A stretch of DNA of 33,035 nucleotides, from the NCBI GenBank assembly GCA_902141825.1, contig CABFPG010000016.1:1-33035 (forward strand). The letters run 5' to 3'. The position numbers and the translations under genes are program-made. This document shows, piece after piece, positions 9,815 through 33,035 of the stretch (position 1 is its first letter; every line of letters begins with the position of its first letter). The notes under the pieces are model-generated. The model ran no database searches. It was given only the letters and a program-made list of their open reading frames with translations, and was not told the origin of the DNA. Source of the stretch: Thalassocella blandensis. Its GTDB lineage: Bacteria > Pseudomonadota > Gammaproteobacteria > Pseudomonadales > Cellvibrionaceae.

Positions 9815-9972
9815 AGCCTACGCCAAAAGCCAATTAAACACATTAAGAGAAACGGGCATATCATGCTCGCTTCTCTTAATGTGTTGTTCAGAACAATAAT
9901 GCCAAATAGCTATCCATTTATTTAAATACTTGATTGATCACTCACTCAGGTTTTTCTCTTGCCGATGCCGGT

Positions 9973-13430: not shown

Positions 13431-16400
13431 CTACACCCCACCGCCGTTTGTATTGGGTTCCTGTTTCCGCTTCACTGACTGCCCCTTAGTACTTTTTTGC
13501 AAAACACCGTCTTTTAGCTGCTTTTCCAGCTCACGTAGTTGTTGCGATACATCGCTCATTCGTTCATGCGTTCGCAAATCTATTTCCAGCTTTTTATCCA
13601 TACTCCGCACCAGCGGGTAAATACTGCTTTCGATAGTAGAAGCCAATACCTGTAACAATTTATCAATACCGGGCACTGGTTGATTGATCACTTCTATTTT
13701 TTGTTGGCTCGCGTGAATAGAGTCGTGTATTTTATTCAGCGTTTGCGAAACAAATTCTTGAGGATCGAACTGTGCGGGCACCAGCTCCTGCTTGTCAGAG
13801 TCCAGTCGCTTAATCTGTAATTTAGTCAGCGCGTTAGCTTCTCGACTCATCCTAGATAGAGATTGGCCCTGCTTGGACATTTCTGCAGTTGCCTGTGCAA
13901 TGGTATCCACCGTTTTCACCAGATCTACCAACTGACCAATAACTTTCATGCCAGTATCGGCTTCATCGCCTCCCATGGCTTTGTTGCGCAGAAAATCGGC
14001 TTTAATTTCACTCCATCGCGCCGCCTGCTTATCTGTCATATTCCCGCGTAACTCAGCCAGCTTTAGCAGGTTTTCTTCTGCACCAGCAGTCAGCAATTGC
14101 GCCTCTCCCAGATAGTGATCTGCAATAACCTGCATTAACTCGGCATCGTTCATCACTGAGCTGACCTTTTCCGCCATCTTATTCATATTACGGTAACTGC
14201 CCTGGAGCTTGAATGACGGTTCTGTACGGTATTTATCGGCTTGAGCTGCAGAGGCAATATATTGTTGATTAATCTTCAAGATCACATCACGAATGACAAA
14301 AAGTTTTTTCAATACATCAACAATTTCGTTTATTTCAGCACCACTGTACTGGTAATTGAAATCTGTCGTGGCGACATCTTTTCCCTGAGCCAACGCTACA
14401 AATAAATATACATCTTTAATATCCCGCGTTGCCAACGGTGCCAATACAGCATTGGACGTTAAACTATTCTCGATATAACTCAAGGCGAACTGCTCATCCA
14501 TACCACCGAGAATATCACCAAGATTATATATATCCGCTCGGTTTGCCAGCATATCTGGAATTTTAAACACCTCACCGGATTCGGTGTAAGGGTTACCAGC
14601 CATTACCACGCAAAACTTTTTACCGCGCATATCATAGGTTTTTGTATCTCCTTTCCACACACCTTCTATACGACGCGTACCATCACACAAAGAAATAAAT
14701 TTTTGCAAGAACTCTGGATGCGTGTGCTGTATATCATCGAGATACAACATGACATTATTTCCCATCTCCAACGCCAGGTTCAGTTTATTCAGCTCCTGAC
14801 GCGCGGTTGCATTCGGTGCTTGCTGCGGATCAAGCGAATGCACATCGTGTCCCAGTGATGGACAGTTTATTTTCATGAAGATAAGGCCTAAGCGACTGGC
14901 GACATATTCCATCAAAGTGGTTTTACCATAACCTGGAGGCGAAATCATCATCAGCAACCCCATAAGGTCTGTCCGCTTGCTATCGCCAACGGTACCCATT
15001 TGCTTTGCAAGATTGTCTCCGATAATAGGCAGGTAGGCTTCGTTGATTAAACGATTTCGCACAAACGAGCTTAAGGGGCGGGGTTTAAATTCGTGCAAGC
15101 GCAAGGATTTTCTTTCGCGTGCAATCACATCCTGCCGAATTTGCAAATAACGCTGGAAGTTTTGTAAGTGAACTTCGGCATGCTCATCCAGCTGCAAAAG
15201 AAACTCATCAACCGCAAAATGCAAACAACGCTTGTCGAGTTTAGGGTGTTCTCCCATCAAGCCTTCGACGGTTATTTCCAAATCCACTTCTGTGCTGCGC
15301 CGATCGATACGTTCATCAGCATTAATTAATCCTGCTGCTTCCGGGATATAACGACGCAGTGCATCCAGCTGTTTATTGTTGACCAATGCACTGAGCCAGG
15401 CACAGGATAAATTCCACCGCTCTGCCGGCCATCCGATCATTTTTTCCAATGCCATCTGGAAACGTCGCCACGATTCATTATTCAACGATCGCCGCAGCTC
15501 TTCAACGAGTCTACGTGCATATTTGCTGCTGACAAACTCGGCTCGCTCGCGCCCAAGCTCACACACCAGGTAATCTGCTGCACGACTGATGTCGAGCGCA
15601 CTGACATCCATCGGGTGCAATCGTATAAACTCCATCATGGCGTGACGAATTTCACTTGCTAATAATGCATGTGCTTCGAAACTTGAAAAGTCATCCTTCA
15701 TTTGCTCGGCAGCTTGTGCCCGCTCGATCCAGGTCTCGTATGTTAGACGCTTATTTTGCAACTGTTCAGAAATACGCTGAATATTAGCCCAGAACACTTG
15801 TGCAAAGCCGCGGCATTTAGGGTCAAAGCGAAGTAACTCGGCGCTGTTTAGAGCGGGCAGCAAATCCATTAAAATAAGCGCAGCATCATAGTCATGAATG
15901 CCTTTCTCATACCCTTCTTTGTACCTGGGTGCGGCGTAATCTCGCACCAGCTTTTGCATAAGCTCTCGATCCAGAAGTGCCTGATTCAACTTGTCCTGAC
16001 TCAATTCATTCTCATGTTTTTCAGCGCTTTTGAGAATACTATATGCAAGAAATTCCGCGCGATACACAGAGTCACTTTCAGACGCCAGACTCACATTCCA
16101 GTAAGGTTTTAGCTGGATCAAATCGTCATCGTCAATCGACTCGAAAAAATCAGTTCCACTAAGATGAATATTCAGCGCGTCATCACGCGGGATTATGGTG
16201 AGATCCAAATCCTGAGTATTCACGCTAAACTTATGTCGCGGGCCGAGTTTGATAACATTGCCGTTGTCTTCATAGATATCCGTTTTATCGCGCAAAACAC
16301 GAACGGCTTGCTCCTTTGCCGCTTTGAAACGCGCTTCAACATCGTCAGCTTTAACTTGTGCATCGAGTTTTCTTAAAGCTTCTACAAATTCACGCACTTT

Positions 16401-18833: not shown

Positions 18834-18896
18834 ATGTGTTCCCTTGCTCTTACTTTATATTGGATCTGCGAACTGATTAAACAGATTTGGTCCGAT

Positions 18897-19322
18897 TTAC
18901 TTATTTGCTGTGGAGGTTTGATCGGAGCTTTCGGACGATTTCTCGTCAGACGCTCGTAACTTTCGCGCGGCTTTTTCGCTGCATGACGAGGATTGATGCG
19001 AATTTACCAACCAATTCATTGTTACACCCAAAGCCGCTCCGATTCCCGCCCCCAGAAGAGCGTTTTGCAACGAGTTTTCGTTCTGCCCTGCTTTGCTGAT
19101 GCCAACACCAATACCTGCACCAATGCCCGCACCTATCCCAGCGGCAACTCCCGTTCTGGTACCCGTATTGGTCTTGACCTGCTCCCGCACGCTACCCAAT
19201 TTGCTGATTAATACATTTCTCAGTTCGGATGAGGTAACCAACTCCGTCAACCCCTGATTGTGCAATTCTTTTTGCAGCTGCTGAATTAAACTCGACAGCG
19301 GTACTTCACTTTGTTGTTTCAT
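18897..19322 (-). CDS. Glycine-zipper (GxxxG-repeat) small membrane protein
   Basis: 141 aa. GVAAGIGAGIGAGIGVGI ... LLGAGIGAALG, a classic glycine-zipper (YMGG-like) pattern. Confidence 0.6.
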   Translation of the reverse strand: MKQQSEVPLSSLIQQLQKELHNQGLTELVTSSELRNVLISKLGSVREQVKTNTGTRTGVAAGIGAGIGAGIGVGISKAGQNENSLQNALLGAGIGAALGVTMNWLVNSHQSSSCSEKAARKLRASDEKSSESSDQTSTANK

Positions 19323-19396
19323 AGGTTCGATCTATTTTATTTGTAAAGCTCTGCTTTACCGAACGCTGACTCACGTCAACGTTCGGCTGCTTCGGC

Positions 19397-21307
19397 TTAC
19401 TGCAACTCTTGCGAGTTTTGCGGTGCTCCAGCCATCACTTTGGCAAGAATGGCCTGAATAGTGCCGCTCTTTTCTGCCAGACCATCGACAGCCTTGCCGA
19501 TCGATAGCGACTTGGCAAAGTTATCAAAGAAGTGCTCTTCCCCACCGACAATATCGATTTTCGCTTTTTCCAGAGCCGTTGCCAGTACTTCGGCATTCTC
19601 TTTTGCAATATCTTTCCCAGCGTCAATCGAAGCCAGTGCTTCCTGCAGTGCAGTTTCCAGACTCATACGGAACTCTTCATGAGCTCTGGCCGCATCACTC
19701 ATACTGTTCATCGCACTGAACTTGTCCACCAGACCATCTGCTTCTGCTTTGAATTTCTCACGAATAACTTCAGCATCAGCCAATCCGGTTTCGCGTTTGG
19801 CTTTCGCCTCAGACTCACCTTTGAGCGCAACCACTTTCGCTTCTGATTCACCCTGTGCTGCCGTAATATGGGCTTTTGCCAAACCTTCTTTTTCCATGGC
19901 GTCGGCCATAGCTTCCTGCACTTTCGCTTCGGCTAGACCACTCGCGGCCTCTTCTGCCTGAATGCCTTCGGCGAGTTTCTTCTTCGCATCGGCTTCTTTC
20001 GCTGCCGCTTCCAGGTTCGCCTGGGCCATGGTTGTAATTTCCATCGCTCGGTGTTTGGCCGCCAGCTCTTCTGCTTCTGCACGCTTCACTTCTTTCACTT
20101 TTTCTTCTTCGGCCAACGCTTCCGCATCCAATACTTGCGTTTGCTTACGACGATCCGCTTCGGAAACCTCACGCACTTCTTTAATTTTCTCTTCTTCTAT
20201 CGCAACTGTCTTATCCACAGACACGCGCTCACGAATGACATTGGCAATTTCCTTTTTCTGTACCTCTACAGCTTTTTCAGCATCGATTCGCTGCAATTCC
20301 ACTTCTCTCTCGCGCGAGACAATTTCAAGATCTTTTGCTCGGGTGACCTTCTCAATTTCAATCACTACTGCACGCTGACGGTTTTGCTCCGCCACTTCGA
20401 TCTCACGTTGTTGATTCTCCTTCTGAACCGCCAGCTCCTGATCCGCCGCAATAGTGGCCGCTTCAGATTTCAAGCGCTCCTCTTCCTGCACTTTGACTGT
20501 TTCCGCCTCTTCGCGCGCACGAATGGTGGCGATTTCACGTTGTTGGCGAGCTTCAGCATCAGCTTGTTGTCGCTCGAGTTCAAGCATAGCCTCAACGGTT
20601 TCTACATTCTTTTTCTTGATAGCAAGCTCTTCATCGCGCTCAAAAATATTTGTTTGAACATTTTGAGCAGCCGTGAGTTCAGTGATTTTACGAATACCTT
20701 CAGCATCAAGAATATTGCTGGGGTCCAGAGAGGACTTCGGCGTTTGCTCCAGATAATCGATCGCAACATCTTCCAGCACATACCCATTTAAATCATTACC
20801 GATTACCTGAATGATTTTGTCACGAAACTGTTGTCTATCTTCAAACAGATTGACGAAATCAATTTGTTTACCGACAGTTTTCAGTGCTTCAGAAAATTTT
20901 GCATTAAATAATTCGTTGACAGCATCTTTATCCGATGCACGATTTGCACCCAGGGACTTTGCCACTTTTAAGACGTCTTCGGGGGTTTCGTTCACTCTCA
21001 AATAAAATGCAACGGTAATATCCGCCCGCATATTGTCACGGCAGATCAACCCATCTTTAGCTCGCCTATCCACTTCCATAGTGATCAATGAAATCCTCAT
21101 CAACTCTTTTTTATGGATGATTGGCAGTATCCAGGCGCCGGTGAAAAATACTTTTGGCTTTGGAGTCGTGTCGTTTTTAATCAGCGCCACACCTTGCTCT
21201 ACTTTCACATAGAAAGCTTTGTATAGTGCAGCGACAACCATTAAGAATAGAAATAACAGACCGATGGTGATTATCACCATAACAACATCTGGTGCAAACT
21301 CTGACAT
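19397..21307 (-). CDS. yqiK: Flotillin / SPFH (band-7) family protein, YqiK-like, with extended coiled-coil C-terminus
   Basis: 636 aa. N-terminal TM helix, then an SPFH domain (...ISLITMEVD...ITVAFYLRV...), then 350 aa of an E/A/K/R-rich coiled coil. AAGGAG RBS. Confidence 0.85.
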   Translation of the reverse strand: MSEFAPDVVMVIITIGLLFLFLMVVAALYKAFYVKVEQGVALIKNDTTPKPKVFFTGAWILPIIHKKELMRISLITMEVDRRAKDGLICRDNMRADITVAFYLRVNETPEDVLKVAKSLGANRASDKDAVNELFNAKFSEALKTVGKQIDFVNLFEDRQQFRDKIIQVIGNDLNGYVLEDVAIDYLEQTPKSSLDPSNILDAEGIRKITELTAAQNVQTNIFERDEELAIKKKNVETVEAMLELERQQADAEARQQREIATIRAREEAETVKVQEEERLKSEAATIAADQELAVQKENQQREIEVAEQNRQRAVVIEIEKVTRAKDLEIVSREREVELQRIDAEKAVEVQKKEIANVIRERVSVDKTVAIEEEKIKEVREVSEADRRKQTQVLDAEALAEEEKVKEVKRAEAEELAAKHRAMEITTMAQANLEAAAKEADAKKKLAEGIQAEEAASGLAEAKVQEAMADAMEKEGLAKAHITAAQGESEAKVVALKGESEAKAKRETGLADAEVIREKFKAEADGLVDKFSAMNSMSDAARAHEEFRMSLETALQEALASIDAGKDIAKENAEVLATALEKAKIDIVGGEEHFFDNFAKSLSIGKAVDGLAEKSGTIQAILAKVMAGAPQNSQELQ

Positions 21308-21332
21308 GGCTAAGCTCCTTTTATAGCTTTGT

Positions 21333-22019
21333 TTAGATTTTAAATTCTTGCTCAGAAATAACTTTATAAATATTTTCTTCCGCTACGTACTCCAGCAGCA
21401 CTATTTTATCTCCCCGTTTAAACTCCTCTTCACTTTTATATGATCTCACCTTCACAATCAGTCCTGCGCCTCCATCGTTCACTGTGGCTTCGCCAAATTC
21501 AGTATTTACAATAGAAGTTCTTACTAGCGCCGATTGACCGACTATCACTTTCTGCACTTCCTGATGCGCAGTTTTGAAAAAATCACGAAAAGGATTGAGC
21601 AATTTCCCTGTAATCATGGCAGCAGCATACAGGACGCCAACCAACACCGCTAAAGCGACAATAAATTGCACAATTCCATCAGGTATAAAATGGAAAGTAT
21701 ATTCTACGATGAGAAAACTTAGAATCCAGCCGATTAAACTTACCAGAAAAAATACAAGCGGCATGGGAATACCAACCAAGCCCAGACGCATCATAATCCC
21801 GGCTAAAACATGGCTGCTGGTCAAGCCTTCAGAGCCATCTAACCCGCCGTCAATATCAGGACCATCAAAGTTCAAAAAATCCAAATCAATCAGACCTAGA
21901 ACTGCAATCAAGCCAAAGAACGTAAATAAGATTAGTAGACAAGTAAAAACAATGACAGGAAATGTCAAAATAATATTATAGAAAGGGTCCATTGCTTCAG
22001 TGAAAAAAATTGCAAACAT
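21333..22019 (-). CDS. yqiJ: NfeD/YqiJ-like inner-membrane protein with C-terminal OB-fold
   Basis: 228 aa. Four to five TM helices, then a soluble C-terminal beta domain (GQSALVRTSIVNTEFGEATV...GDKIVLLEY). This is the canonical flotillin partner and sits 25 bp upstream of it. GGAGG RBS. Confidence 0.7.
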   Translation of the reverse strand: MFAIFFTEAMDPFYNIILTFPVIVFTCLLILFTFFGLIAVLGLIDLDFLNFDGPDIDGGLDGSEGLTSSHVLAGIMMRLGLVGIPMPLVFFLVSLIGWILSFLIVEYTFHFIPDGIVQFIVALAVLVGVLYAAAMITGKLLNPFRDFFKTAHQEVQKVIVGQSALVRTSIVNTEFGEATVNDGGAGLIVKVRSYKSEEEFKRGDKIVLLEYVAEENIYKVISEQEFKI

Positions 22020-22517
22020 TTACGTCCTCCGTATGCACACCATTGCTATATCAGCAATATTTTTTGTTGTTATTATCAGGTTTAAATTCCATAACAAACA
22101 ACCTAGTCCAGCAGGAATGGCAGGTTATTCGCAGGAATGTTAATTTAAACACTCCACTCGATACCACCTCTCTTTTGATTCTCTCAAATATATCCTCCAG
22201 AGAAAATCATCCATTTAAGCTTCCTGGACCGCCTGTTACAACCTGAAAAATTGATTCGTCCGTGAATCCTGACATCCCTTTTCCTCCTTTCCTTACGACA
22301 ACTCTCCCACTATATCTGAAAGGGTCTTTGCCTGGATATGCGTTTTTAGAACCACCGTAAATGCCAGACAAACTCCTACAACTCCTGTAACCTTGCTGCA
22401 GCAACATTTCCATAATATCGCTACATGAAACAGTTCCGTCCTGTAAACCGTTTTTCCTCCGTGATCCTCTTGCGTCCAATCCCATTCAGATTTTGTTACA
22501 TTCGAATACGCCTGGCG

Positions 22518-23201
22518 TTATCGCTTTTTCAGACGATCAAGCACATCTTGAGCACTTTTCCCCGTTGAAACAATGCCGGCTTGCTGTAGCTTTTGCTGCA
22601 ATGAGTCCTCCGAAGTCTCTTTGGACAGTTCACTCGCTGCCTGCATCTGAGCAGCTTTAAGTTGCTGCTTTTCCTTGATGCGCTCTAAAGACTCCATTGC
22701 GGTTCTCAACTTTGAATTTGTTCCACTGTGACGCTCCGCTACAGCAGCTTGCGCACGCTGAACATTTTCAGTCGCCTTCACCGTGTCTACCTGCTGCTTC
22801 AAGCGTTTGATATTCTGATCGGCCAGTTTTATGGCACCGCGCAATTCATTCGCACTGACCTCATAATTTGTAGCAGCTTCTTTTTCAGACTGCAGCTGGT
22901 TTTCAAAATCAGCAATTTTTTGTGCAACCTCCAAAGCTAGCGCCTCGTCATTTTTACTTAAGGCCTGCTCTGCGTACCCCTCATACTCACTGATAGTATT
23001 TGTTAACTGAGTACATTTTTCTTCCGCAAGCTTTTGCCTTGCAATGATGGTGGCCAACCCATCTTTCGACTGCTTCAGCTCTTCCGTTGCCTCTCTGACT
23101 TCCTGGTCAAGAATGCGTAAGGCTTGTGAATCTACAATGGCCTCACCAGCTTCGTTCACACCGCCACGAAGAGCGGTCATCATCTTTTCCCAAATATTCA
23201 T
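22518..23201 (-). CDS. pspA: PspA/IM30 (Vipp1, ESCRT-III-like) family protein, YjfJ-like
   Basis: 227 aa, all-helical. N-terminus MNIWEKMMTALRGGVNEAGEAIVD, heptad pattern and length match PspA/YjfJ. AGGAGAGG RBS. Confidence 0.8.
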   Translation of the reverse strand: MNIWEKMMTALRGGVNEAGEAIVDSQALRILDQEVREATEELKQSKDGLATIIARQKLAEEKCTQLTNTISEYEGYAEQALSKNDEALALEVAQKIADFENQLQSEKEAATNYEVSANELRGAIKLADQNIKRLKQQVDTVKATENVQRAQAAVAERHSGTNSKLRTAMESLERIKEKQQLKAAQMQAASELSKETSEDSLQQKLQQAGIVSTGKSAQDVLDRLKKR

Positions 23202-23217
23202 CTTCCTCTCCTCAAGC

Positions 23218-23889
23218 TCACGCCTCTACAGGCTGCTTTAAAAAATTGCTATAAGCTTCGGTTGCCTGAATTACGTTTGATGCCAACACTTCAATCTCAA
23301 AAACAATATTGGGCAAGACCGAAGATGCACTTAACGCACCAAACATCTGATAATAATCCTTTCCGTTAGTCAGCGTATCCAGACTAATAGTTGAAAGAGG
23401 AAAGTATTTATGAGTCCGCAACACAGCCTCATTAAATGCACTAACATCTTTCACCTCGTCCACCGACCACAAAACAGCCTCTACGATAATCTGATCACCC
23501 GACACGGTGAGAAACAAAGGCAAATCACCCACTTCATGCATTATCAGATGTATGGCCGGCTCGATACCGTCAATCAACTCTATGCTCGCTAACTCACCAT
23601 TAAACAGCGGCTCTGAACAAAGCGCTTCGTATAACCCTGAGGTGGTCCAACGTTTAATTTCTGCCATCATCCAATCTCCTTTTTGTATTGATCGTGTGGA
23701 TATTGCGCTCTCGTGCACGCTTCCAGTCAACGCCAGATCATCCGCCACTTTTGCACGCAATTGCTTCTCGTATTTCGCCAGATACTCAGCATTTTCGGGC
23801 AAGATCCAAACTTCCTTCTTCACCAGGCCCAATTCGCGTAACCGGCGGCGATATTCTCTCTGGTAATGTGCTGATGATTTTGGCTTCAT
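23218..23889 (-). CDS. yjfI: DUF2170 (YjfI-like) protein with 90-aa basic N-terminal extension
   Basis: The C-terminal 130 aa resemble E. coli YjfI, the partner of yjfJ/pspA-like genes. The N-terminal extension is Arg/Lys-rich (QREYRRRLRELGLVKK...). The 16-bp gap to pspA supports co-transcription. Confidence 0.55.
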   Translation of the reverse strand: MKPKSSAHYQREYRRRLRELGLVKKEVWILPENAEYLAKYEKQLRAKVADDLALTGSVHESAISTRSIQKGDWMMAEIKRWTTSGLYEALCSEPLFNGELASIELIDGIEPAIHLIMHEVGDLPLFLTVSGDQIIVEAVLWSVDEVKDVSAFNEAVLRTHKYFPLSTISLDTLTNGKDYYQMFGALSASSVLPNIVFEIEVLASNVIQATEAYSNFLKQPVEA

Positions 23890-23907
23890 GTGAGTAACTC
23901 TACCCTG

Positions 23908-23964
23908 TTACATGTAATAGGTCAATAAAATTACATGTAAACATGTATAAAACATTACATGTAA
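23908..23964. promoter_or_regulatory. Operator-like array: three perfect 10-bp palindromes TTACATGTAA (plus one degenerate copy) at 23-24 bp phasing
   Basis: Read directly at 23908-23917, 23931-23940 and 23955-23964; degenerate AACATGTATA at 23940-23949. Sits in the 92-bp gap immediately upstream of the yjfI-like start. Confidence 0.55.
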
Positions 23965-23981
23965 GAAAATAAATTAAATAA

Positions 23982-26168
23982 TTATATATATTTCAATAAC
24001 TTAAACTTAAATGCCCTGGCAAGCAGGAGGTCAGGAAACACTTTGCACCGACTGTTATATTCTTCCACTGCATCGTTATAACCTTGCCGCAGCACAGCAA
24101 TTTCATTTTCCAGATGTGTAAGCTGCTGAATCAATTTCGCAGTAAGGCTGTGGGCCTTGAGTTGCGGATATGCTTCCACCACCGCCGTCGCCTGATGCAC
24201 CAGATGCTCTAGATCTCCCTGTGCCGCGCTATCGACACTAATCGCTGACCACTGCCGACGCATATCCGCCACAGTTCGCAATAGTGCCTCTTCATGCTGC
24301 ATGAACTTATGGGCAATTTTATTAAGGGCAGGCACTAGATTCTTCCGTTTCCGTAACGCAACCTCAATGTTAGCCCGGTTCCGCATCGCTCTTTTTCGCA
24401 GAAATACGAGATCGTTGTAATGCAGGATTATCATCAGATTCAGGAGAAACACCGGCGACAGCATGGCGGCAAACAAAAAATCCGTGGTTGCAAAGCGACC
24501 ATTTAAGCCGAGCCAGGCCAGCACAAAGTAAAGGCCCGCACTATACGCAAGAGTCAACAATGCCAGCCCTGCGCGCGCCTTACGCAAAAGAAGTGCCCGC
24601 TCTGTTAAGTTCGACAGCAGGTACAAAGATTTTTTACCCGCCTCTCTCATACACAATCTATCATCCTGCTTCATATCAATCGCCACAGGACCAAGCGCAT
24701 ATAAGGAATCCTGTGACGCCAGCCATTCAACAAAGTAGTGGCGGCTACCGCGATATTGGCTTTCGCTGTGTTTTGAAATTACTTCTGCCTTCGCGGGATA
24801 AATCTTCAGCGAGCCACTCTCATCCACACACAAAAATGGAACGGCCTCTTTCCTATCCTCAATGGTCACCCAACGGGTTTTCCCACCACTACTTCGCTTC
24901 TCTTTGACCCGGTAGCGGTACCACATACATGGCACGCCGGCCAAAGGCGCTTCCAGAGTCCTGGAATTTATAGCCTCGACACGCCCCAACACCTCATTCA
25001 ACCCACAACTCACACCGACTACTTTACTGGTCCGAATATTTTCGATGGCCCGCTTAACAAATATAAGCTTCACTCCAAAAAACACTGCGAGTACAGCCAC
25101 CAACGCCGATATCCCCATAATCCATATCCCGGAAACAGACGACAAAGCGACATCATCAAGCCCCCGTTTTCGCTCCTGCAACAACTCAAGCTCCTGAGGC
25201 GAGATAACCACCTCTAATGCGGGTAATGAGATTTGCCACAGCGGCGCCAACCATCGCTCGGGTATTCGCTGAAACTGTTGATGCAATTGGGTGTGTGACA
25301 TTGCCAATGCCAAACGCATTTCACGAGATTGCAAGGCATCAATCGCATTTTGCCTCAGCGCCACCTCTACCGCCGCCTGCTGTTTGTCATACCGCTCGAC
25401 GGCGTTGTGCAAATCAGCCTTCATCATTAACAGCGACAACTGCACTAGAACCAAGGCTACCGTAACCGCAATAATGCTGATAAACACCAGCACACGATGA
25501 ATACCGAACATGCAAACCAACGCATAGATAGCCACACAGCTCAGCGTCAACCCAAGCCATAAACGAAATAATACTGATGCACCTATTTTCCCCAGCACCG
25601 ATGCCGAAGAATTCGTGGTTATGACAGGATTGTATTGACCGGCCTGACGAAAGCCCAACGACATGCCATTTGAGCGGGATTCCGCAAAGCCAAAAGCCAC
25701 CAGCTGCTGACCGGGATCTATGCGATATTCGGTGTGACGGGTAGAACCGTCAGTACGTGTAAAACTGCGTGCAACCTGCCATTCAATATGTGATTGGTCA
25801 CGCTGACTCAGCAATTGAATTACCGCTGTAGAATCTCGCAGGGCTATCGTCGACGCACGACGAATATTTTCAACGGTTTTCCAGCTTGTATTACCATCAG
25901 AATCACGCTCTTCTACTTCGCGTATGTATTGAAAATATAGACAGGGGGTTTGAGTGAAATGACTTGCTATTGTCGCCCCCTCAGCAGTACCAGCCACTTT
26001 GACCTCGCCAGGTAGAACCGCAATATTGCGCGTGAGCGGAATACGCTCCATTTGTCGAAGCTGCTGTAGTGTTTCAAACCCTTGCGAAGTAAAAAAAACT
26101 GCTCCCGCGCCCCCCAACCCGGCGGACAACAGTAAAACCAACCACCACCTCAAAGACATTCGTGCCAT
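23982..26168 (-). CDS. Membrane protein: duplicated GIDE-like domains fused to a C-terminal LemA domain
   Basis: Internal duplication: TPCLYFQYIREVEERDSDGNTSWKTVE aligns with VPCMWYRYRVKEKRSSGGKTRWVTIE. Each copy is preceded by TM helices. The C-terminus matches the LemA family (...NLVPALNKIAHKFMQHEEALL...VEAYPQLKA...NEIAVLRQGYNDAVEEYN...FPDLLLARAFKFK). Start set at the Met before the signal/TM segment. Confidence 0.65.
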   Translation of the reverse strand: MARMSLRWWLVLLLSAGLGGAGAVFFTSQGFETLQQLRQMERIPLTRNIAVLPGEVKVAGTAEGATIASHFTQTPCLYFQYIREVEERDSDGNTSWKTVENIRRASTIALRDSTAVIQLLSQRDQSHIEWQVARSFTRTDGSTRHTEYRIDPGQQLVAFGFAESRSNGMSLGFRQAGQYNPVITTNSSASVLGKIGASVLFRLWLGLTLSCVAIYALVCMFGIHRVLVFISIIAVTVALVLVQLSLLMMKADLHNAVERYDKQQAAVEVALRQNAIDALQSREMRLALAMSHTQLHQQFQRIPERWLAPLWQISLPALEVVISPQELELLQERKRGLDDVALSSVSGIWIMGISALVAVLAVFFGVKLIFVKRAIENIRTSKVVGVSCGLNEVLGRVEAINSRTLEAPLAGVPCMWYRYRVKEKRSSGGKTRWVTIEDRKEAVPFLCVDESGSLKIYPAKAEVISKHSESQYRGSRHYFVEWLASQDSLYALGPVAIDMKQDDRLCMREAGKKSLYLLSNLTERALLLRKARAGLALLTLAYSAGLYFVLAWLGLNGRFATTDFLFAAMLSPVFLLNLMIILHYNDLVFLRKRAMRNRANIEVALRKRKNLVPALNKIAHKFMQHEEALLRTVADMRRQWSAISVDSAAQGDLEHLVHQATAVVEAYPQLKAHSLTAKLIQQLTHLENEIAVLRQGYNDAVEEYNSRCKVFPDLLLARAFKFKLLKYI

Positions 26169-26312
26169 AATGCTTCCTTCTCCACTCTGCTTTTGCATGC
26201 GCCGCGCAATAAATCTAACCTGTGCATTCGGACGTATACCCTTGCACCTGACTTTATGCACTCACACATTTACAATGTAAACACACTATAAGCAGCGAGA
26301 GTAAGTATTCGC

Positions 26313-27458
26313 GTGAAATATAAAAACTCCGACAATTTCCAACACCACCAGGCTGATAAAATTGGTGTATTACTAAGCAACCTGGGCACTCCAGAAGCAC
26401 CCACAGCCAAAGCCCTGAAACCCTATCTCAAACAGTTTCTGTCTGACCCACGAGTGGTCGAAGTTCCGCGTCTGCTATGGTGGTGCATCCTGAATGGAAT
26501 AATTCTGCGAACGCGCCCTAAACGTTCGGCCGAGGCCTACGCATCCGTTTGGACAGAGGAGGGGTCACCACTTTCTATCATCACCAGACAACAAGCGGAA
26601 AAAGTGCGAGCAAAGCTACAGCACCAACACCCATCGATCGACATAGCCTGGGCAATGCGTTATGGCAAACCCGCAATTGCCGAAGGCATCCAAACCCTGA
26701 TTGATAATGGCGCCCGCAAAATTCTGGTACTTCCACTGTATCCACAATACTCAGCAGCTACAGTTGCCTCCACATTCGACGCGCTGGCACAGGACTTTAC
26801 TCATCGGAGATGGCTACCCGAACTTCGGTTTATTAACAGTTATCACGATTACTCTCCCTACCTGAAAGCGCTCAGCCAAAGCATAGAACAACACTGGGAA
26901 ACTCACGGTAAACCACAGAAGCTGATTTTTTCCTACCATGGTGTACCGCTGCGGTATTTACACAACGGCGACCCCTATCATTGCCAGTGCTTAAAAACAT
27001 CCCGCCTGATCGCCGAGCATCTCGGTTTAAATGATGACGAGCACATGACGACATTTCAGTCGCGATTTGGAAAAGAAGAATGGTTAAAACCTTACACCGA
27101 TGACACCATGAAATCACTGCCAAAGCAGGGCATAAAATCAGTACAGGTGATCTGCCCGGGGTTTTCCGCGGACTGCCTGGAAACTATTGAAGAAATTGGT
27201 GAAGAAAATCGCGAATACTTTATCGCTGCCGGTGGGGAACAATACACTTATATTCCCGCCCTAAACGACAGCGAGCCCCACATCGAAGCGCTATGTCAAT
27301 TGATCCAAAAGAATTTACAGGGATGGCTGGACGATCCAACCTTGCCAATAACCCCAACAAACACCACAACCCAAGACAGCTCAGATGATCAAACCGCTGA
27401 ACTGATTGCACGCGCTAAGCGAGCTGAACAATGCCCATATAATAAGCCCTCTACTTGA
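26313..27458 (+). CDS. hemH: Ferrochelatase
   Basis: Collinear with E. coli HemH (recalled): GVLLSNLGTPEAPT, LKQFLSDPRVVEVPRLLWW, VLPLYPQYS, FSYHGVP, FQSRFG, CPGFSADCLETIEEI. GTG start. Carries a 45-aa polar C-terminal extension. Confidence 0.9.
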   Translation: MKYKNSDNFQHHQADKIGVLLSNLGTPEAPTAKALKPYLKQFLSDPRVVEVPRLLWWCILNGIILRTRPKRSAEAYASVWTEEGSPLSIITRQQAEKVRAKLQHQHPSIDIAWAMRYGKPAIAEGIQTLIDNGARKILVLPLYPQYSAATVASTFDALAQDFTHRRWLPELRFINSYHDYSPYLKALSQSIEQHWETHGKPQKLIFSYHGVPLRYLHNGDPYHCQCLKTSRLIAEHLGLNDDEHMTTFQSRFGKEEWLKPYTDDTMKSLPKQGIKSVQVICPGFSADCLETIEEIGEENREYFIAAGGEQYTYIPALNDSEPHIEALCQLIQKNLQGWLDDPTLPITPTNTTTQDSSDDQTAELIARAKRAEQCPYNKPST

Positions 27459-27543: not shown

Positions 27544-28300
27544 TTAGAGCACACAAGAAGTCTCGAGCCATTTACTAAAAATTTTCCTGGCATTTACTTT
27601 AGGTGTTGCGATTTCATGGTTTGGTACAAGCAGGTACTGCGGAATGGCTGAATGCGGACACATTTTTGTTAGCAGTTGATATTCCGCTAAGCATGCATTT
27701 AACTTACTGATGAGTATCGACAAAAGCAAACTTGATTGAATGAGTTGGTGTTTTAAAGTTTCTGCGCTAGCTACCTTGATTTTTTATACAAACCTAATGC
27801 TTAGTAAGAGTTTTGCAGCCAGCTCAAATATTGTAAGTCAAAAGGCAGCAAAACAATGGCGGAAGATGCTATAACATTTTATAAAGGCACAGAGTATTAC
27901 GTCGTATACCGCACAAAGAATTTTACAAATATTCAGCTGTACTCAACGTTATAAATCAATCAGATCGAACACGATTGTTAGGCTTAAACTCTATCGTTTG
28001 ATCTTTTTGGTTGAATTCAATCGCTTCTGGTCTTATTGACCCCCTCCCTGAGAAGAATCGTTCGGTCCTTATTGCCCTACTGTTAAATACCATTAAAGAA
28101 TTTCTGTCAAAATGAATCTCTTGAATTCTTAAACGCAAACATTCAGATACTCACAACCCATCCCATAAAGAAGCGCGATAATCAGCTTATCTCTTTCCTT
28201 GAGTTCTTCAAGAGTGGCGGCAACTTCGGATGGCGAGAGAATCCCGAGTATACGACGCAGTCTCTTTGCCAATGTAAAACCCGAATCACCAAATTTAATG
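27544..28300 (-). pseudogene. intI: Integron integrase (intI) pseudogene: nonsense mutation plus frameshift in Box I, decayed termini
   Basis: Minus-strand translation of 28150-28299 gives ...LAKRLRRILGILSPSEVAATLEELKERDKLIIALLYGMG (tyrosine-recombinase Box I; IntI has [11 protein letters not shown]). The continuation is in another frame: GL*VSECLRLRIQEIHFDRNSLMVFNSRAIR (IntI has [28 protein letters not shown]). No intact 320-aa ORF. A weaker C-terminal remnant lies at 27544-27729. It is divergent from the cassette array, as in integrons. Confidence 0.55.
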
Positions 28301-28899
28301 TTGAAATATTTTTAGGTAAAGAAACTCTAAAATATTCAAAATAACTTTCTGTGTATTTATCGCAATGTTTTTAACAGCCAAGCAGGTAAGAAAACTCTTG
28401 ATATTTGAACGCCCATTTCATTTAGCTGACGCCTATTGTTGAAATGAAGAAAAAGCCGAATCCAGTACAAATATGTTTTTCAGCAGGGATACTAAAGCCC
28501 CACAAACACAAATCCGCCCTGACGGATTCAATAAACTTACTAGACATAGCGCTAACTTCTGAAACGCAAATCATGTATATACATACAGCTATATTAAAAA
28601 GGAAGCGAGAAGACTTCAATTTTTTACTCGGTTTGCCAACTAAACTATGCTAAGTTATTCCTACTTTAACCCCTCAAAAAAATTAAAATCGCTTTATAAT
28701 CAATAGCTTATTCTAGAAGGACGGGGAGATAGTCCGCACGCTCAAAAGTGCAAAACCGCGCATGCGCAATTTTCTGCAAACAAGGAATGTTCAATTCGTA
28801 TTTTATTTCTTGTTTTTCAGTAACTTGACTTGATCATCTAGAAAATAGGTGAGGTGCATATTGCGCATGCGATATATACAAATGTTAGGGCTCTGCGAT

Positions 28900-29364
28900 A
28901 TGAAGTACCTTTTTCTATCAATAGCAGTAACCATATGTGGGTGTGCATCCAATACGATTGAAAATATTGATTTTAAAGAGTGGTACCCTATCGGATATGA
29001 AGGATTTCTGGAATCAATAAACTTATCTTCAGGTTCAAATGTTGAAAATTGTGGCTTTCACGACTTAATGACCGAAGAGGGAAAAAAGAGTGTTGAGTAC
29101 GGATACAAGTGCGCAAGACAAAATGCTAATGCTGGAAAACCATTTAAGTTTGGTACGGTACGATTACCTATTGATTCTTTCGCATTTGAGATCTTAATAG
29201 GGACAGCGGATAGCGAATACTGGCTCGTGGTTTATGATGTTATGATTGACGGAGATGCTCCTCAGCAATGGGCAAAGAAATGCAACTCAATTAAGTTCAG
29301 TCGAAAAAACCAAGATTACGAAGGTAAAAGGTGCGGTGAAATCAATAGCGAAGTATGGCCCTAA
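28900..29364 (+). CDS. Cassette 1: small lipoprotein, unknown function
   Basis: MKYLFLSIAVTICGC|AS lipobox. The TAA stop is embedded in the attC R'' box (CCCTAAC). Confidence 0.55.
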   Translation: MKYLFLSIAVTICGCASNTIENIDFKEWYPIGYEGFLESINLSSGSNVENCGFHDLMTEEGKKSVEYGYKCARQNANAGKPFKFGTVRLPIDSFAFEILIGTADSEYWLVVYDVMIDGDAPQQWAKKCNSIKFSRKNQDYEGKRCGEINSEVWP

Positions 29365-29475
29365 CAAGCGCTTCCAGCCTGACGCCAAAACCTCCGCGTT
29401 TTTGTGTTACTCGCTGCGCTCAAACATTAACACAAAAACACTCCAGCTTTGGCGCAGCTGAAGCGGGCGTTAGTG
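29359..29475 (+). other. attC site 1 (117 bp)
   Basis: R'' GCCCTAAC, R' GTTAGTG. L''/L' arms GCGCTTCCAGCCTGACGCCAAAA and TTTGGCGCAGCTGAAGCGGGC pair with bulges. Confidence 0.75.
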
Positions 29476-29511
29476 TTCACAATGCATCCCACACTATATA
29501 AGGAATAATAT

Positions 29512-30018
29512 ATGGCTGAATACAAAGGATCGGAAGATGTATTTAAGGAGCTTGTAGAAGATTCCGAAGAAAACTGGCTTTACGGTTTGGTTGCATTTGC
29601 AATCATAGAGGAGCGTAGGTTCGAGTGGATGAAACACTTTGAGTCTCACAATCAAATCCCTCCTTCCGAAGCGGAAATTCAAAACTGGTATAAGCAGCAA
29701 CCTCGTAGCGAAATAATTCGGGCTAAAGGAGAAGCCGAAAGCGCGCTACAAACGTATGCGTCTGAGGTAATCGACGTGGCTCTGGAGGAAAAATCAACGA
29801 AAATCGAAGAGGGAATTATAGTTTCAGAAATCAGGGAATCGAGGAGGTTTTGGCCTCAATTTGGAGTAAACTTCATAGGTGGTTTGGCGGCATCTGTTGT
29901 GTTTGCTGCATTACTTATTTTATTGGCGTTCTTTGTATTAAATGACACGTCTCCTGCTGAGATTGGTTCTCATCTAAAGCATGGCTTAGAGGAAGGTAAT
30001 CATGGTCAAGAAAACTGA
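29512..30018 (+). CDS. Cassette 2a: hypothetical protein with C-terminal TM helix
   Basis: 168 aa. Good AAGGAA RBS. Acidic soluble N-terminal part, one TM near the C-terminus. Confidence 0.55.
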   Translation: MAEYKGSEDVFKELVEDSEENWLYGLVAFAIIEERRFEWMKHFESHNQIPPSEAEIQNWYKQQPRSEIIRAKGEAESALQTYASEVIDVALEEKSTKIEEGIIVSEIRESRRFWPQFGVNFIGGLAASVVFAALLILLAFFVLNDTSPAEIGSHLKHGLEEGNHGQEN

Positions 30019-30256
30019 AGTAACTGGAAAGAAGGCAGCTTCCGCAGCATCAAAAGTATTAAGAAATCCGAATTCTAGTAAAGCAGCGAAGTCAGCTGCG
30101 GGTTCAGCGCTTTCACAAACTAAATCTCCGCCAAAGGTGACTTCAAAAAAAGCTGCCACAGCTGCGTCTAAAACTCTACGAAGTAAAAGTACGAGTAAAA
30201 CTTCAAAAACTGCAGCGGGTTCAGCTTTAACCCAGCGTCCAAATAAGAAAAAATAA
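30002..30256 (+). CDS. Cassette 2b: Lys/Ala/Ser-rich histone-H1-like basic repeat protein
   Basis: 84 aa. Two 30-aa repeats (KKAAsAASKvLRN..SK.aKsAAGSAL.Q). Overlaps the preceding ORF by 17 bp. Confidence 0.5.
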   Translation: MVKKTEVTGKKAASAASKVLRNPNSSKAAKSAAGSALSQTKSPPKVTSKKAATAASKTLRSKSTSKTSKTAAGSALTQRPNKKK

Positions 30257-30370
30257 CACTAACAAGGCAGTCAATTTGACAGCTATTCCGTCGCTTGTTT
30301 TTGGTGGCGGTCGCTACGCTGCCACCAAAAACAATCAACTACATAGCTGCAAATTACTGCGGCGTTAGTG
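30257..30370 (+). other. attC site 2 (114 bp)
   Basis: R'' CACTAAC directly after the stop, R' GTTAGTG. L'' GGCAGTCAATTTGACAG and L' CTGCAAATTACTGCGGC. Central hairpin TTGGTGGCGG...GCCACCAA. Confidence 0.75.
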
Positions 30371-30650
30371 CGATGGGATTTTTCCAAAGGTAGCTTGTTT
30401 AGTGCGAGCATCTTTCGAAAAGTGCCAGTAGGAATTCCAGTGTAGTCTTAAATACTTGGCTTTGATCCGAGCTAAACGTTGCCGTTCAAGCTATGTAAAG
30501 TATTCTCGAACAATGGAGTTACTGAAACGGCGGTGCTTTTTTATGAGCGGTTCCTGTAAAGCGGTGATACAGCCAGTAAGCGGGAATGTAAATTCAGCAC
30601 CAAGCTGGCGTTTAGTGCCACAATTTAATTGGTTGTTGCCAACTGCGGCA

Positions 30651-30763
30651 GCACTAACAATTACAACCAGCGACGCCCGTGCCTGCGGCACCGGCTGGAC
30701 AGCCAAAACTGCGCGCTACGCCCGCAAAAACGTTTTGGCTGCCGCTGTTGAAGGGCGTTAAGC
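30651..30763 (+). other. attC site 3 (113 bp), closing an apparently non-coding cassette (30371-30763)
   Basis: R'' CACTAAC, R' GTTAAGC. Arms CAGCCAAAACTG and CGTTTTGGCTG. No convincing ORF in the 280 bp before it. Confidence 0.65.
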
Positions 30764-30770
30764 GTAAACT

Positions 30771-31214
30771 ATGTCATTCGCACCACCTAGAACTGGAAAG
30801 AAGAGAGAACTACCATGCCATGTTTGTGGCGCTGTAGTCATGCAAGAACAGTTTCAAAAAGGAAGGAACAAATTTTTCCAGCCGTTGGCTCACTTAGCAC
30901 CTTGTGGTGCTCATTGCATGGGTGGCGGTGTAGATTATCGAGAAAAATGCGTACATATTCCTTCTTTTGGCGCATGTCCGAAATGCGGGAAAAGTGGAAC
31001 TATAAACGTTTACGAAATAATTCATGAAAATAAAGAAGAGAAAGTTTCGTTTCATCAATATACTGAAACATATCAATCAGACTTAGGGTTTCGCATTGAG
31101 CGAGAATATTTGGAAAATGGCGTTTGGGTAGTCAAGAAGAGGTTTCCAACTAATTTCCCAGAGTCATTAGAAAAAACTATTGAATGGGCTAAGAATTACG
31201 TAGAGTGGCTGTAA
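30771..31214 (+). CDS. Cassette 4: Cys-rich (putative zinc-ribbon) hypothetical protein
   Basis: 147 aa. CHVCG...C..C...C..CGKSG pattern in the N-terminal half. Stop followed by attC. Confidence 0.5.
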   Translation: MSFAPPRTGKKRELPCHVCGAVVMQEQFQKGRNKFFQPLAHLAPCGAHCMGGGVDYREKCVHIPSFGACPKCGKSGTINVYEIIHENKEEKVSFHQYTETYQSDLGFRIEREYLENGVWVVKKRFPTNFPESLEKTIEWAKNYVEWL

Positions 31215-31216
31215 AT

Positions 31217-31285
31217 GCTTAACAAAAATGTCAATTTGACCTCGTTACGCTTCGCTCCACTCGGCAAATTACATTGGCGTTATGG
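31217..31285 (+). other. attC site 4 (69 bp)
   Basis: R'' GCTTAAC, R' GTTATGG. Arms ATGTCAATTTGACC and GGCAAATTACAT. Confidence 0.6.
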
Positions 31286-31420
31286 TGTACCGTGCAGAAA
31301 ATTAAGCGACGTGGGAGCATATAGCTTGCAGTTCAAGCTTGTGGAATACAACCTGTAAACGTGGCTATATTTGGTCGCAAAAAGGTTACGAAGGTGGATG
31401 GACGAGGAAGAGTTTTCGAT

Positions 31421-31489
31421 TTAAGTAAGAGCCGTGCCGGGGCCGATGAACTTTAGTTCGCATCGGACTGAGGCACGGCTCTTACTTAA
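31421..31489. repeat. 18-bp perfect inverted repeat (TTAAGTAAGAGCCGTGCC / GGCACGGCTCTTACTTAA) with nested 6-bp stem in the 33-nt loop
   Basis: Read directly. Inner stem CCGATG/CATCGG. No flanking T-run. Lies inside cassette 5, 195 bp upstream of its ORF. Confidence 0.8.
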
Positions 31490-31683
31490 AGCGTTTCCTC
31501 GCATCGTTCTCTCCTTGAAATTTTCTGCACCGGATAAAGTCCTCGGGGACTGATTGCTGCACATGAATTTACTGTTATGCTAACAGCAAAAATGTGCGAA
31601 TATCGTGGACGCACATAACAACGCACTCTCAGCGACAGCAAAAAATGCTGCGCTTAAGTTAATCGTTATGCACTTAAAAAGGA

Positions 31684-31965
31684 TTGAGTATGTCCAAGAA
31701 AATGGAAGCTAATGAACTAGAAAGCCTAGAAGTTAATGGCATCGGTCAAGTTACTCCTGGCATGCAGCTAGAACACCCTGTTTTCGGTCTTGGCCAAGTA
31801 GAAGCAATCTTTAAGTTTGTTAAATCCGACGATATAACAATACGCATAAATTTCGAAAAGCATGGTTCAAAGGCATTGGTGCCAGAGTATGCAAAACTCT
31901 CATTACCAAAACCTAAAACACAAAAATCCTCACTCATCTCTAAGCTATTTGGGCAGGGCAAATAA
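31684..31965 (+). CDS. Cassette 5: small hypothetical protein
   Basis: 93 aa. AAGGA RBS. Stop followed by TGTATAAC and a short palindromic element. Confidence 0.5.
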   Translation: MSMSKKMEANELESLEVNGIGQVTPGMQLEHPVFGLGQVEAIFKFVKSDDITIRINFEKHGSKALVPEYAKLSLPKPKTQKSSLISKLFGQGK

Positions 31966-32030
31966 ATGTATAACAAGGCAGTCAAACTGACGCCACGTGC
32001 TGCCCAATACACGAATACACTTTAACAAGA
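31966..32030 (+). other. Possible short/degenerate attC site 5
   Basis: TGTATAAC R''-like box and hairpin GTCAAACTGAC, but no clean GTTRRRY box before the next RBS. Weaker than the others. Confidence 0.35.
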
Positions 32031-32038
32031 GGCTGATT

Positions 32039-32566
32039 ATGAAGAATTTAATAAACTCCATGCGTGGAAATAAACCAGCTGAAGACTATCACCGCGGTCA
32101 CAGAACTAATATGATAGCCAAGGTTCAGGTGACTGCTACCGGCCGTATAATCCAAAGAGGACCCGGTCAAGATGCGCATGCCGGTATTCCTGCCTTATTG
32201 CGAAATAATATAAACGCAGGAAGAACTCCGCTACTATGGGCTTATGGCGATGAGCTCAATCAAACAGTAGTGGTATTCGGTTATGATATGTTTGTGGATT
32301 ATATGGGGGCGCAAGTGAAAATCGGTCATGTGGCTTTGATGGATCAAGCACATATTTCAGGCGAAATTAGCCTATTGCCCAATAATGTCTGGTCAATTGA
32401 TAATGAATCAGGCGCGTGGGGTGGCATGGGTAATGAAAGTGGAAAAAGTGAAAAGCTTAATAGAGTCGCCGACTTTATGTCTCGAGCATGTAATATGCAA
32501 GTCAGGGCGGAAAGAGCCTATTCAAGAAACGCTGTTAAACGGTGGATACAACACAAATTTCGATAA
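32039..32566 (+). CDS. Cassette 6: hypothetical protein (possible toxin-like domain)
   Basis: 176 aa from ATG 32039, which has an AAGAGG RBS (the ORF track starts earlier, at 31997). No family recognised; His/Arg/Gly-rich N-terminal half. Confidence 0.5.
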   Translation: MKNLINSMRGNKPAEDYHRGHRTNMIAKVQVTATGRIIQRGPGQDAHAGIPALLRNNINAGRTPLLWAYGDELNQTVVVFGYDMFVDYMGAQVKIGHVALMDQAHISGEISLLPNNVWSIDNESGAWGGMGNESGKSEKLNRVADFMSRACNMQVRAERAYSRNAVKRWIQHKFR

Positions 32567-32687
32567 TTCGAATAAGAGAATCTTGAAGCTTATTTACAAC
32601 AACCTTCGAGACTTCCTCAAACCGGACAACAAAATTGTTTAGTTGCCAGCAAACTAAAATCATGCTGAAAATGTCTTGGTACAATAC

Positions 32688-32759
32688 AGCTAACAAGGCC
32701 AGCCAGAGGGACAGCCAAACCGCTGCGCGTTTTGTCTGCCCCTGCTGGCGGCGTTGGTA
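32688..32759 (+). other. attC site 6 (72 bp)
   Basis: R'' AGCTAAC, R' GTTGGTA. Arms GGCCAGCCAGAGGGACAGCCAAAC and GTTTTGTCTGCCCCTGCTGGCGGC pair imperfectly. Another attC start (GTCCTAACGCCGCCGGGGG) appears at about 32988 at the window edge. Confidence 0.7.
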
Positions 32760-33035
32760 TGACACCCCTTGTCAATAAAAACAAAGAAATCCTCTAACTA
32801 AAAATAGTTAGTGTCCGAATAAATAGGATGAGTTATTGCAGTAGATGAAGCCAGTAAACTCGTCGGTTATCATGCTGGTATTCGTGGGTTGCAAGAAAAT
32901 ACTCCTGCCTATCCGACCTTACTATTTCCGTCGAGATGCCTATCTTCAGTCTATGCTCGTGGTTTGAATGTCGATGACATTCACCGTCCTAACGCCGCCG
33001 GGGGTTGCACCTCCACCGGGGCTTGATCCGCCGCA

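Follow-up and report, generated by a model that had tools for sequence, protein, structure and literature searches.

A Probable Chromosomal Integron With a Decayed Integrase Gene Beside hemH in Thalassocella blandensis

Introduction

The distal end of a contig from Thalassocella blandensis (Gammaproteobacteria; Cellvibrionaceae) raises the question of whether it carries a genuine integron cassette array and, if it does, where that array came from and whether it can still exchange cassettes. The window analyzed here is the whole 33,035-bp contig (GenBank CABFPG010000016.1, assembly GCA_902141825.1), which ends inside the array. An initial annotation of this DNA had proposed an integron cassette array with at least five attC sites at 28600–33035, and the proposal was borne out: reading of the sequence identified six complete attC sites and one half-site, 59–117 nt in length, on the plus strand of 28885–32759 (Table 1). 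The remnant of an integron-integrase gene (intI) falls just outside the interval originally proposed. We infer, with a probability of about 0.9, that the locus is the proximal part of a chromosomal integron of T. blandensis, the integrase of which decayed in place. With six complete attC sites and only a pseudogene upstream, the array is a CALIN (cluster of attC sites that lacks an integron-integrase) in IntegronFinder terms.

Table 1. Positions of the integron-related features in the window. Start box, R'' box, and paired positions refer to the pairing between the 5' end of a cassette and the R'' box of its own attC site.
Feature	Position	Strand	Length (nt)	Start box	R'' box	Variable positions paired	Description
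hemH	26313–27458						Ferrochelatase; adjoins the intI pseudogene
intI pseudogene	28547–27989	−					Residues 1 to about 190 of an integron integrase
attI region (putative)	28548–28890	+					Inferred crossover between G28884 and T28885 in aaatGTTAGGG
Cassette 1	28885–29469	+		GTTAGGG (attI junction)	CCCTAAC	4/4	Open reading frame (ORF) 28900–29364, 154 aa, signal-peptide/lipoprotein-like; attC1
attC1	29359–29475	+	117		CCCTAAC at 29359		R'' includes the stop of ORF 28900–29364
Cassette 2	29470–30364	+		GTTAGTG	CACTAAC	4/4	Overlapping ORFs 29512–30018 (168 aa) and 30002–30256 (84 aa); attC2
attC2	30257–30370	+	114		CACTAAC at 30257		Directly after the stop at 30256
Cassette 3	30365–30757	+		GTTAGTG	CACTAAC	4/4	No convincing ORF; attC3
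attC3	30652–30763	+	112		CACTAAC		R' GTTAAGC; weakest of the six
Cassette 4	30758–31279	+		GTTAAGC	GCTTAAC	4/4	ORF 30771–31214, 147 aa, Cys-rich, zinc-ribbon-like; attC4
attC4	31217–31285	+	69		GCTTAAC at 31217		After the stop at 31214
Cassette 5	31280–31665	+		GTTATGG	ACATAAC	3/4	Non-coding, highly structured; attC5
attC5	31613–31671	+	59		ACATAAC		
Fused cassettes 6+7	31666–32753	+		GTTATGC (cassette 6)	GTATAAC (cassette 6)	3/4 (cassette 6)	ORF 31690–31965 (91 aa), attC6 half-site, ORF 32039–32566 (175 aa), attC7
attC6 5' half-site	31968 to about 31995	+			GTATAAC at 31968		After the stop at 31965
attC7	32688–32759	+	72				
Partial attC-like 3' arm	32987–33035	−					Minus strand reads ...GGCGGCGTTAGGA; ends at the contig end

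attC Sites and Cassette Boundaries

All six complete sites carry R'' and R' boxes with their AAC and GTT triplets at a spacing within 57–141 nt and, between them, an imperfect L''/L' repeat with extrahelical bases on one arm, in the same register throughout. Read from the 5' end, the shared layout starts with R'' (7 nt) and a 5-nt spacer; a 3-bp stem leads to an extrahelical C and then to a 6-bp stem that may hold one extra base, followed by an extrahelical A (C in attC3), a further stem, the variable center, a stem, 3 bp, a 5- or 6-nt spacer, and R' (7 nt). The same layout fits 18 known attC sites, taken from class 1 integrons and from plasmid integrons of Thiodictyon and Kovacikia. Unpaired bases are confined to the 5' arm of the top strand, corresponding to an extrahelical G and T on the bottom strand, and the sites are also strand-asymmetric in having an A after AAC and a C before GTT. 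In published descriptions, to which these sites conform, folded attC sites are 57–141 bp long, conserve only three nucleotides, and have extrahelical bases, a variable terminal structure, and an unpaired central spacer (Loot et al., 2017; see also PMC2727003 and PMC5027507).

The RYYYAAC boxes that the initial annotation had seen overlapping or adjoining stop codons are indeed present, at 29359, 30257, 31217, and 31968, with GTT-core boxes 59–117 nt downstream. Its statement that two sites share the boxes CACTAAC...GTTAGTG holds only for attC2, which has both; attC3 has CACTAAC alone, and attC1 only GTTAGTG. An ORF precedes the attC site in most cassettes, but cassettes 3 and 5 are without a convincing one. 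The attC6 half-site shares 90% identity with the 5' arm of attC2, and no L'/R' (3') arm was seen for it on reading the sequence; because this arm has been lost, cassettes 6 and 7 are fused.

The sites were scored with a log-odds profile for which the 18 known attC sites that fit the layout, all from unrelated integrons, were the sole training set, and in which the length of the center was left free. Reference sites were taken from plasmids (aadA1, catB3, aadA5, blaVIM, dfrA27, arr-3, aacA4, qacG2, blaOXA-1, dfrA1, blaIMP-38, and dfrA17) and from the unrelated plasmid integrons of Candidatus Thiodictyon (pTs485) and Kovacikia (pB). This asymmetric profile took the place of a symmetric hairpin scan, which did not distinguish strands and also selected a perfect but unrelated hairpin at 9833–9889. 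Among 2072 AAC...GTT pairs on both strands of the window, the six complete sites rank as the top six (attC1, 47.5 bits; attC7, 41.2; attC2, 40.0; attC5, 35.1; attC4, 20.6; attC3, 12.1), and the next pair scores 4.9 bits. Known sites left out in turn scored 32–60 bits, with a single outlier (Kov4) at 11.7; atypical sites outside the training set scored 25.8 (dfrA17), 15.2 (blaIMP-38), and −27.8 bits (ThioB, which is without extrahelical bases). Unrelated control DNA (2.76 Mb from 80 hemH loci, both strands) yielded five pairs of at least 12 bits, three of which exceeded 15 bits; these three all lie, evenly spaced and on one strand, in a single Marinobacter salexigens locus, and are a genuine attC cluster. 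Thus scored, attC1, attC2, attC5, and attC7 are like canonical attC sites, attC4 is clearly above background, and attC3 is significant in context but marginal alone.

Model R1, an Infernal model derived from 14 of the known sites after trimming of the variable center, reaches at most about 80 nt, a limit also seen in a control search of other arrays. In the window it gave matches on the plus strand only to attC7 (31.6 bits, E = 2e-5), attC5 (29.8 bits, E = 5.4e-5), and attC4 (18.8 bits, E = 0.024), whereas the next-best match in the window had E = 0.74. These bit scores are comparable to those of real attC sites from other arrays that were outside the training set. MAFFT scrambled the arms of long attC sites, whether full-length or trimmed at the center, so that no Infernal model spanning 112–117 nt was obtained. 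A search of the window with Rfam, which holds no attC family, gave no match at either gathering or permissive thresholds.

The bulged imperfect palindromes and attC folding reported in the initial annotation are supported by the predicted bottom-strand hairpins, which close at R''/R' in five of the six sites, attC3 being the exception (z-scores: attC1, −4.2; attC2, −9.6; attC4, −0.5; attC5, −2.9; attC7, −4.5; the bottom-strand DNA fold of attC1 has −30.4 kcal/mol). When the six trimmed sites are aligned, 92% of the cells of the L''/L' helix are paired, with compensatory changes in 10 of its 13 pairs; the covariation score is 0.707 versus 0.19 for shuffles (none of 500 reached the observed value), and slid registers leave merely 27–44% of cells paired.

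The cassette boundaries carry the footprint of the recombination reaction. IntI strand exchange falls between the G and TT of the core box, and for this reason a cassette carries its own 5' TTRRRY, which pairs with its own R''. Across cassettes 1–4, R'' pairs with the start of its own cassette at 16 of 16 variable positions (Table 1), whereas with the next core box downstream only 10 of 16 agree. Known class 1 cassettes obey the same rule, which would not be expected of repetitive extragenic palindromic (REP) elements or terminators. The GTTAGGG at 28884–28890, in the putative attI region, is exactly complementary to the R'' of cassette 1; attI sequences as such are integrase-specific.

Two further motifs resemble parts of attC sites. 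Within cassette 3, positions 30590–30625 (AGCTGGCGTTTAGTGCC) resemble the 3' end of an attC site with one extra T, and may be a relic of another degenerate site. Past attC7, at 32792–32813, lies a mini-palindrome, CTCTAAC-TAAAAATA-GTTAGTG, like bare R''/R' boxes with nothing between them.

Integrase Remnant

The intI remnant lies directly upstream of cassette 1 on the opposite strand, where six-frame translation and tblastn place it in three reading frames with in-frame stops. After frame correction, its best NCBIfam match is TIGR02249 (integron integrase; E = 6.9e-16), and its best match of solved structure is VchIntIA/IntI4 (2A3V; E = 8e-28), compared with 2e-10 for a XerC-like protein. The nearest database proteins are IntI fragments from Photobacterium, Vibrio, and Shewanella, at approximately 50% identity. 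Most of the closest relatives are themselves truncated IntI fragments of 150–290 aa (from Vibrio, Shewanella, Photobacterium, and metagenomes), which suggests either frequent decay of intI within this marine IntI group or a fragmentary state of many of those contigs.

Beyond residue 190 or so, tblastn with the nearest IntI proteins gave no significant match in the region. At 27864–27805 on the minus strand, the hexapeptide FRHCFA matches exactly and is followed, collinearly and in a single frame, by FELAAKLL; this may be the last remnant of a catalytic box with internal deletions. The region of the IntI-specific domain and most catalytic residues are absent, so that there is no intact tyrosine recombinase with such a domain here, and the intI gene is certainly non-functional. 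Because the adjoining integrase has decayed, the array cannot rearrange itself; that is, it is dead in cis. The next-best R1 match of the window (12.6 bits, E = 0.74), at 27941–27983 on the minus strand, sits at the apparent deletion point just below where IntI homology ends; it has GCCTAAC...GTTGAGT boxes without inner stems, and is probably a chance match.

A history that would account for this arrangement can be drawn from established integron biology. An integron-integrase gene would once have stood next to hemH, divergently upstream of the array, followed by attI, with its crossover between G28884 and T28885, and by no fewer than seven promoterless cassettes with an attC site at the end of each. 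IntI would have bound the folded attC bottom strand of a circular cassette and joined it to attI by exchange between G and TT in the core box; with every such insertion, one more cassette would have been stacked at the end of the array nearest attI. With intI lost, the array would be frozen unless another integrase acts in trans.

Cassette Contents

Searches of Pfam, NCBIfam, PADLOC, and PHROGs gave no functional assignment for any cassette ORF, in keeping with the description of the cargo in the initial annotation as having no recognizable function. Cassette 2 encodes two overlapping genes. The 168-aa protein has a C-terminal transmembrane segment, and the 84-aa protein has two K/A/S-rich repeats and matches phrog_5079 (E = 1.6e-25); PDB sequence searches with both proteins were empty. 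The gene pair recurs in L102, an unrelated 12.3-kb metagenomic contig with all genes on one strand and 13 attC sites scoring 19–47 bits, where the larger protein has 85% aa identity to its counterpart here. In that contig the pair forms a single cassette with the same boundaries, starting at GTTAGTG and ending at CACTAAC; nucleotide identity to cassette 2 is 78.9% over 814 nt, from just before the crossover to the R'' box, where it ends, and the flanking cassettes differ from the neighbors of cassette 2 in Thalassocella. This constitutes direct evidence that the pair has moved as a cassette.

Among the matches listed, relatives of the 168-aa protein share 51–85% identity and belong to Gammaproteobacteria and Desulfobacterota, and the overlapping pair of genes was confirmed in all four other loci examined (for example, 5051–5795 in L102 and 7001–7737 in locus L104, corresponding to 29512–30256 in the window). 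In Trichlorobacter lovleyi, the pair lies between genes for a type I restriction-modification system (HsdRMS) and AbiEi/AbiEii genes, and no attC sites were found around it. That the module of cassette 2 might be a new mobile defense or toxin–antitoxin-like system carried by integrons is conceivable but improbable.

The remaining cassettes are equally devoid of assigned functions. In cassette 3, the only ORFs are those running through the attC site. The 147-aa family of cassette 4 is rare, only 36 of 1.84 billion cluster representatives matching at E ≤ 1e-3. No ORF is present in cassette 5 (31280–31612), which has no Rfam match and an RNA fold z-score of −6.1; it includes an imperfect hairpin of approximately 37 bp (31417–31493), the 22-nt arms of which are 95% complementary and unique in the window, and it could represent a structured RNA, a bidirectional terminator, or a decayed element. 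The 91-aa ORF of the fused cassettes gave only weak matches below threshold (e.g., PcrA/UvrD tudor, DUF3553). The 175-aa protein is identical to the NCBI protein TDB9533_04747 of T. blandensis; its AlphaFold model has no significant PDB neighbor, and in Desulfosarcina ovata an attC array encodes a homolog at its distal end.

Alternative Explanations

Several observations weigh against the interpretation of the locus as an integron that lost its integrase in place. The R1 model cannot span attC1, attC2, and attC3, which are identified by the profile built here, by folding, and by context. Taken alone, attC3 is weak, with 12.1 bits and a minimum free energy fold that does not close at R''/R', as is attC4 in its fold (z = −0.5). 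The covariation alignment was fitted to the structural layout, with four optional bases removed. A sigma-70 consensus scan of the attI region (28548–28900) showed no promoter-like site for the cassette promoter Pc. Lastly, the IntI-specific extra domain falls in the deleted part of the gene, so that the remnant is assigned by best-hit evidence only. The last point leaves some room for a CALIN that arose by secondary-site insertion or rearrangement beside an unrelated recombinase remnant: CALINs are common, and only approximately 5% have a recognizable intI pseudogene nearby (Cury et al., 2016, PMC4889954). Yet the remnant here lies directly upstream on the opposite strand, which is the standard geometry of an integron; it matches integron integrases best, by a wide margin; and GTTAGGG pairs perfectly with the R'' of cassette 1, as the product of attI × attC recombination should. 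We therefore consider an unrelated remnant very improbable. An origin as a mobile integron on a transposon or plasmid is, if anything, slightly more improbable still. The heterogeneous lengths and sequences of the attC sites are as in mobile integrons, whereas no transposase, Tni, insertion sequence, or plasmid genes were found in the 28 kb upstream of the array, where the flank consists of hemH, Asp/Glu racemase, and dehydrogenase genes; moreover, the remnant is only approximately 50% identical to any known IntI and does not belong to classes 1–5, and none of the cassette ORFs matched a resistance family in Pfam or NCBIfam. The notion that the sites are ordinary REP-type palindromes or intrinsic terminators draws on the placement of imperfect palindromes after stop codons, and on the hairpin at 9833–9889 that a symmetric scan selects as well; that hairpin, however, scores 1.8 bits in the profile, whereas the sites match models of known attC sites. 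The sites all lie on one strand, are confined to 29359–32759, have R''/R' boxes, and bear extrahelical bases on the 5' arm only. Most have no T-tracts, and a terminator scan performed at chance level (six found versus 5.8 expected); nor would such elements explain the R''/R' rule across cassettes or the recurrence of cassette 2. This explanation can be set aside almost entirely.

A different proposal accepts the integron and its decayed integrase, and departs from the preferred interpretation only on present-day activity: the array would still be recombinationally active in trans, served by an intact intI elsewhere in the genome or on an incoming mobile integron. The canonical structures and stable bottom-strand folds of attC1, attC2, attC5, and attC7 are compatible with such activity, and half of CALINs reside in replicons that encode IntI, with IntIs tolerating divergent attC sites (Cury et al., 2016, PMC4889954). 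Further cassettes elsewhere are suggested by the end of the contig within the array and by breaks at attC sites in the Logan assembly of the same strain (ERR3367803). On the other side, there is no second intI within this contig, the homology search with the remnant returned no Thalassocella protein, and the truncated attC6 and degenerate attC3 suggest relaxed selection on the sites. Activity in trans is thus unlikely, while being the most credible of the alternatives considered.

Genomic Context

The array is flanked by ordinary chromosomal genes (1–27,458), which include those for an Asp/Glu racemase, a methyltransferase, a 2-hydroxyacid dehydrogenase, an astacin-type protease, and a rhomboid protease. 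A large operon on the minus strand (13431–26261), unrelated to the integron, encodes an 1800-aa DUF3686/AAA_5/DUF7902 protein, PspA, DUF2170, a 759-aa LemA/GIDE-like membrane protein, and three proteins without Pfam match (141, 636, and 228 aa). When contigs were scanned with hemH, the best match reached 67% aa identity, so that there was no close relative, and the integron showed no synteny; intI was absent from all 80 hemH loci. The attC cluster detected in the control DNA is a second integron array near hemH in a different genus: in Marinobacter salexigens D2M19, three attC sites scoring 27–34 bits lie at 18835–20282 on the minus strand of the locus (L033), approximately 8 kb downstream of hemH and in the orientation opposite to that of the Thalassocella array. 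No intI was found within that locus.

Past attC7, 226 bp without a clear gene separate the array from the partial attC-like arm at the end of the contig. This arm is a 31-nt inverted match to the 3' arm of attC2 that faces attC7; it reads AAC followed by GCCGCC, which is the usual context, GGCGGC-GTT, in reverse complement. An inversion, a second, convergent array facing the first, or an assembly break in a repeat could account for it. On the plus strand, GC skew is negative over 1–28 kb and positive across the array (29–33 kb). Should the flank reflect the replication strand, the lagging-strand template would carry the attC bottom strands, a weak indication from a single contig; this orientation has been associated with smaller arrays (Loot et al., 2017).

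Comparison With Known Integrons

Among CALINs, a detectable intI pseudogene was found nearby in 15 of 279 (Cury et al., 2016, PMC4889954), and the chromosomal integrons of Xanthomonas, located downstream of ilvD, show lineage-specific intI decay (Colombi et al., 2025, bioRxiv 10.1101/2025.06.18.660453). The Xanthomonas integron with lineage-specific inactivation of intI is the closest described analog of the Thalassocella locus. CALINs and Xanthomonas integrons likewise have chromosomal, attC-bounded cassettes of mostly unknown function beside a housekeeping gene, and a decayed integrase, such that the array is expected to be stable. The present case differs from them in its host (Cellvibrionaceae), in its neighboring gene (hemH), and in that the remnant keeps only the N-terminal ~60% of IntI. 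Because the pseudogene test of IntegronFinder uses a C-terminal profile of IntI, it would probably overlook this remnant and report a plain CALIN.

With the Vibrio cholerae superintegron and other sedentary chromosomal integrons of marine Gammaproteobacteria, the locus shares a remnant closest to the Vibrio/Shewanella/Photobacterium IntI group, an intI divergent from the array, small ORFs of unknown function, and some cassettes without ORFs. Unlike them, it has no recognized toxin–antitoxin cassette, its integrase is dead, and its attC sites have little shared sequence, in contrast to uniform repeats of the V. cholerae repeat (VCR) type. The trimmed conserved arms average 67% column identity, and a 21-nt 5' arm is common only to attC2, attC4, and attC6; the highly homogeneous attC sites by which sedentary integrons are recognized are therefore not found here. 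Other marks of such integrons are a large array, with more than 19 attC sites, or occurrence in every genome of the species. Of the label "sedentary chromosomal" given in the initial annotation, "chromosomal" stands, with hemH in the flank, whereas the heterogeneous sites (59, 69, 72, 112, 114, and 117 nt) are unlike the uniform repeats of large sedentary arrays.

In attC architecture, the match to class 1 cassettes (aadA1, catB3, aacA4, arr-3, dfrA, and others) is exact to the base, comprising the 5-nt spacer, 3-bp stem, extrahelical C/G, 6-bp stem, and extrahelical A, together with the pairing of R'' with its own 5' TTRRRY. The locus nonetheless differs from class 1 integrons: it is without resistance genes, Tn402/Tn21 context, or 3' conserved segment, and its integrase is not IntI1. 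In literature that names Thalassocella, judged by title and abstract, nothing on integrons was found.

Significance

The current understanding of integrons is unchanged by this locus, which is a new instance of a well-known system with uncharacterized cargo. It extends the hosts of chromosomal integrons by a Cellvibrionaceae genome and, on the interpretation preferred here, offers a clear case of a CALIN arising by in-place decay of intI, with an N-terminal-only remnant of a kind that would escape standard pseudogene screens using the C-terminal profile of IntI. The cassettes constitute a small reservoir of uncharacterized genes, among which the cassette 2 module is demonstrably mobile between arrays and is also present in a defense island in another phylum.

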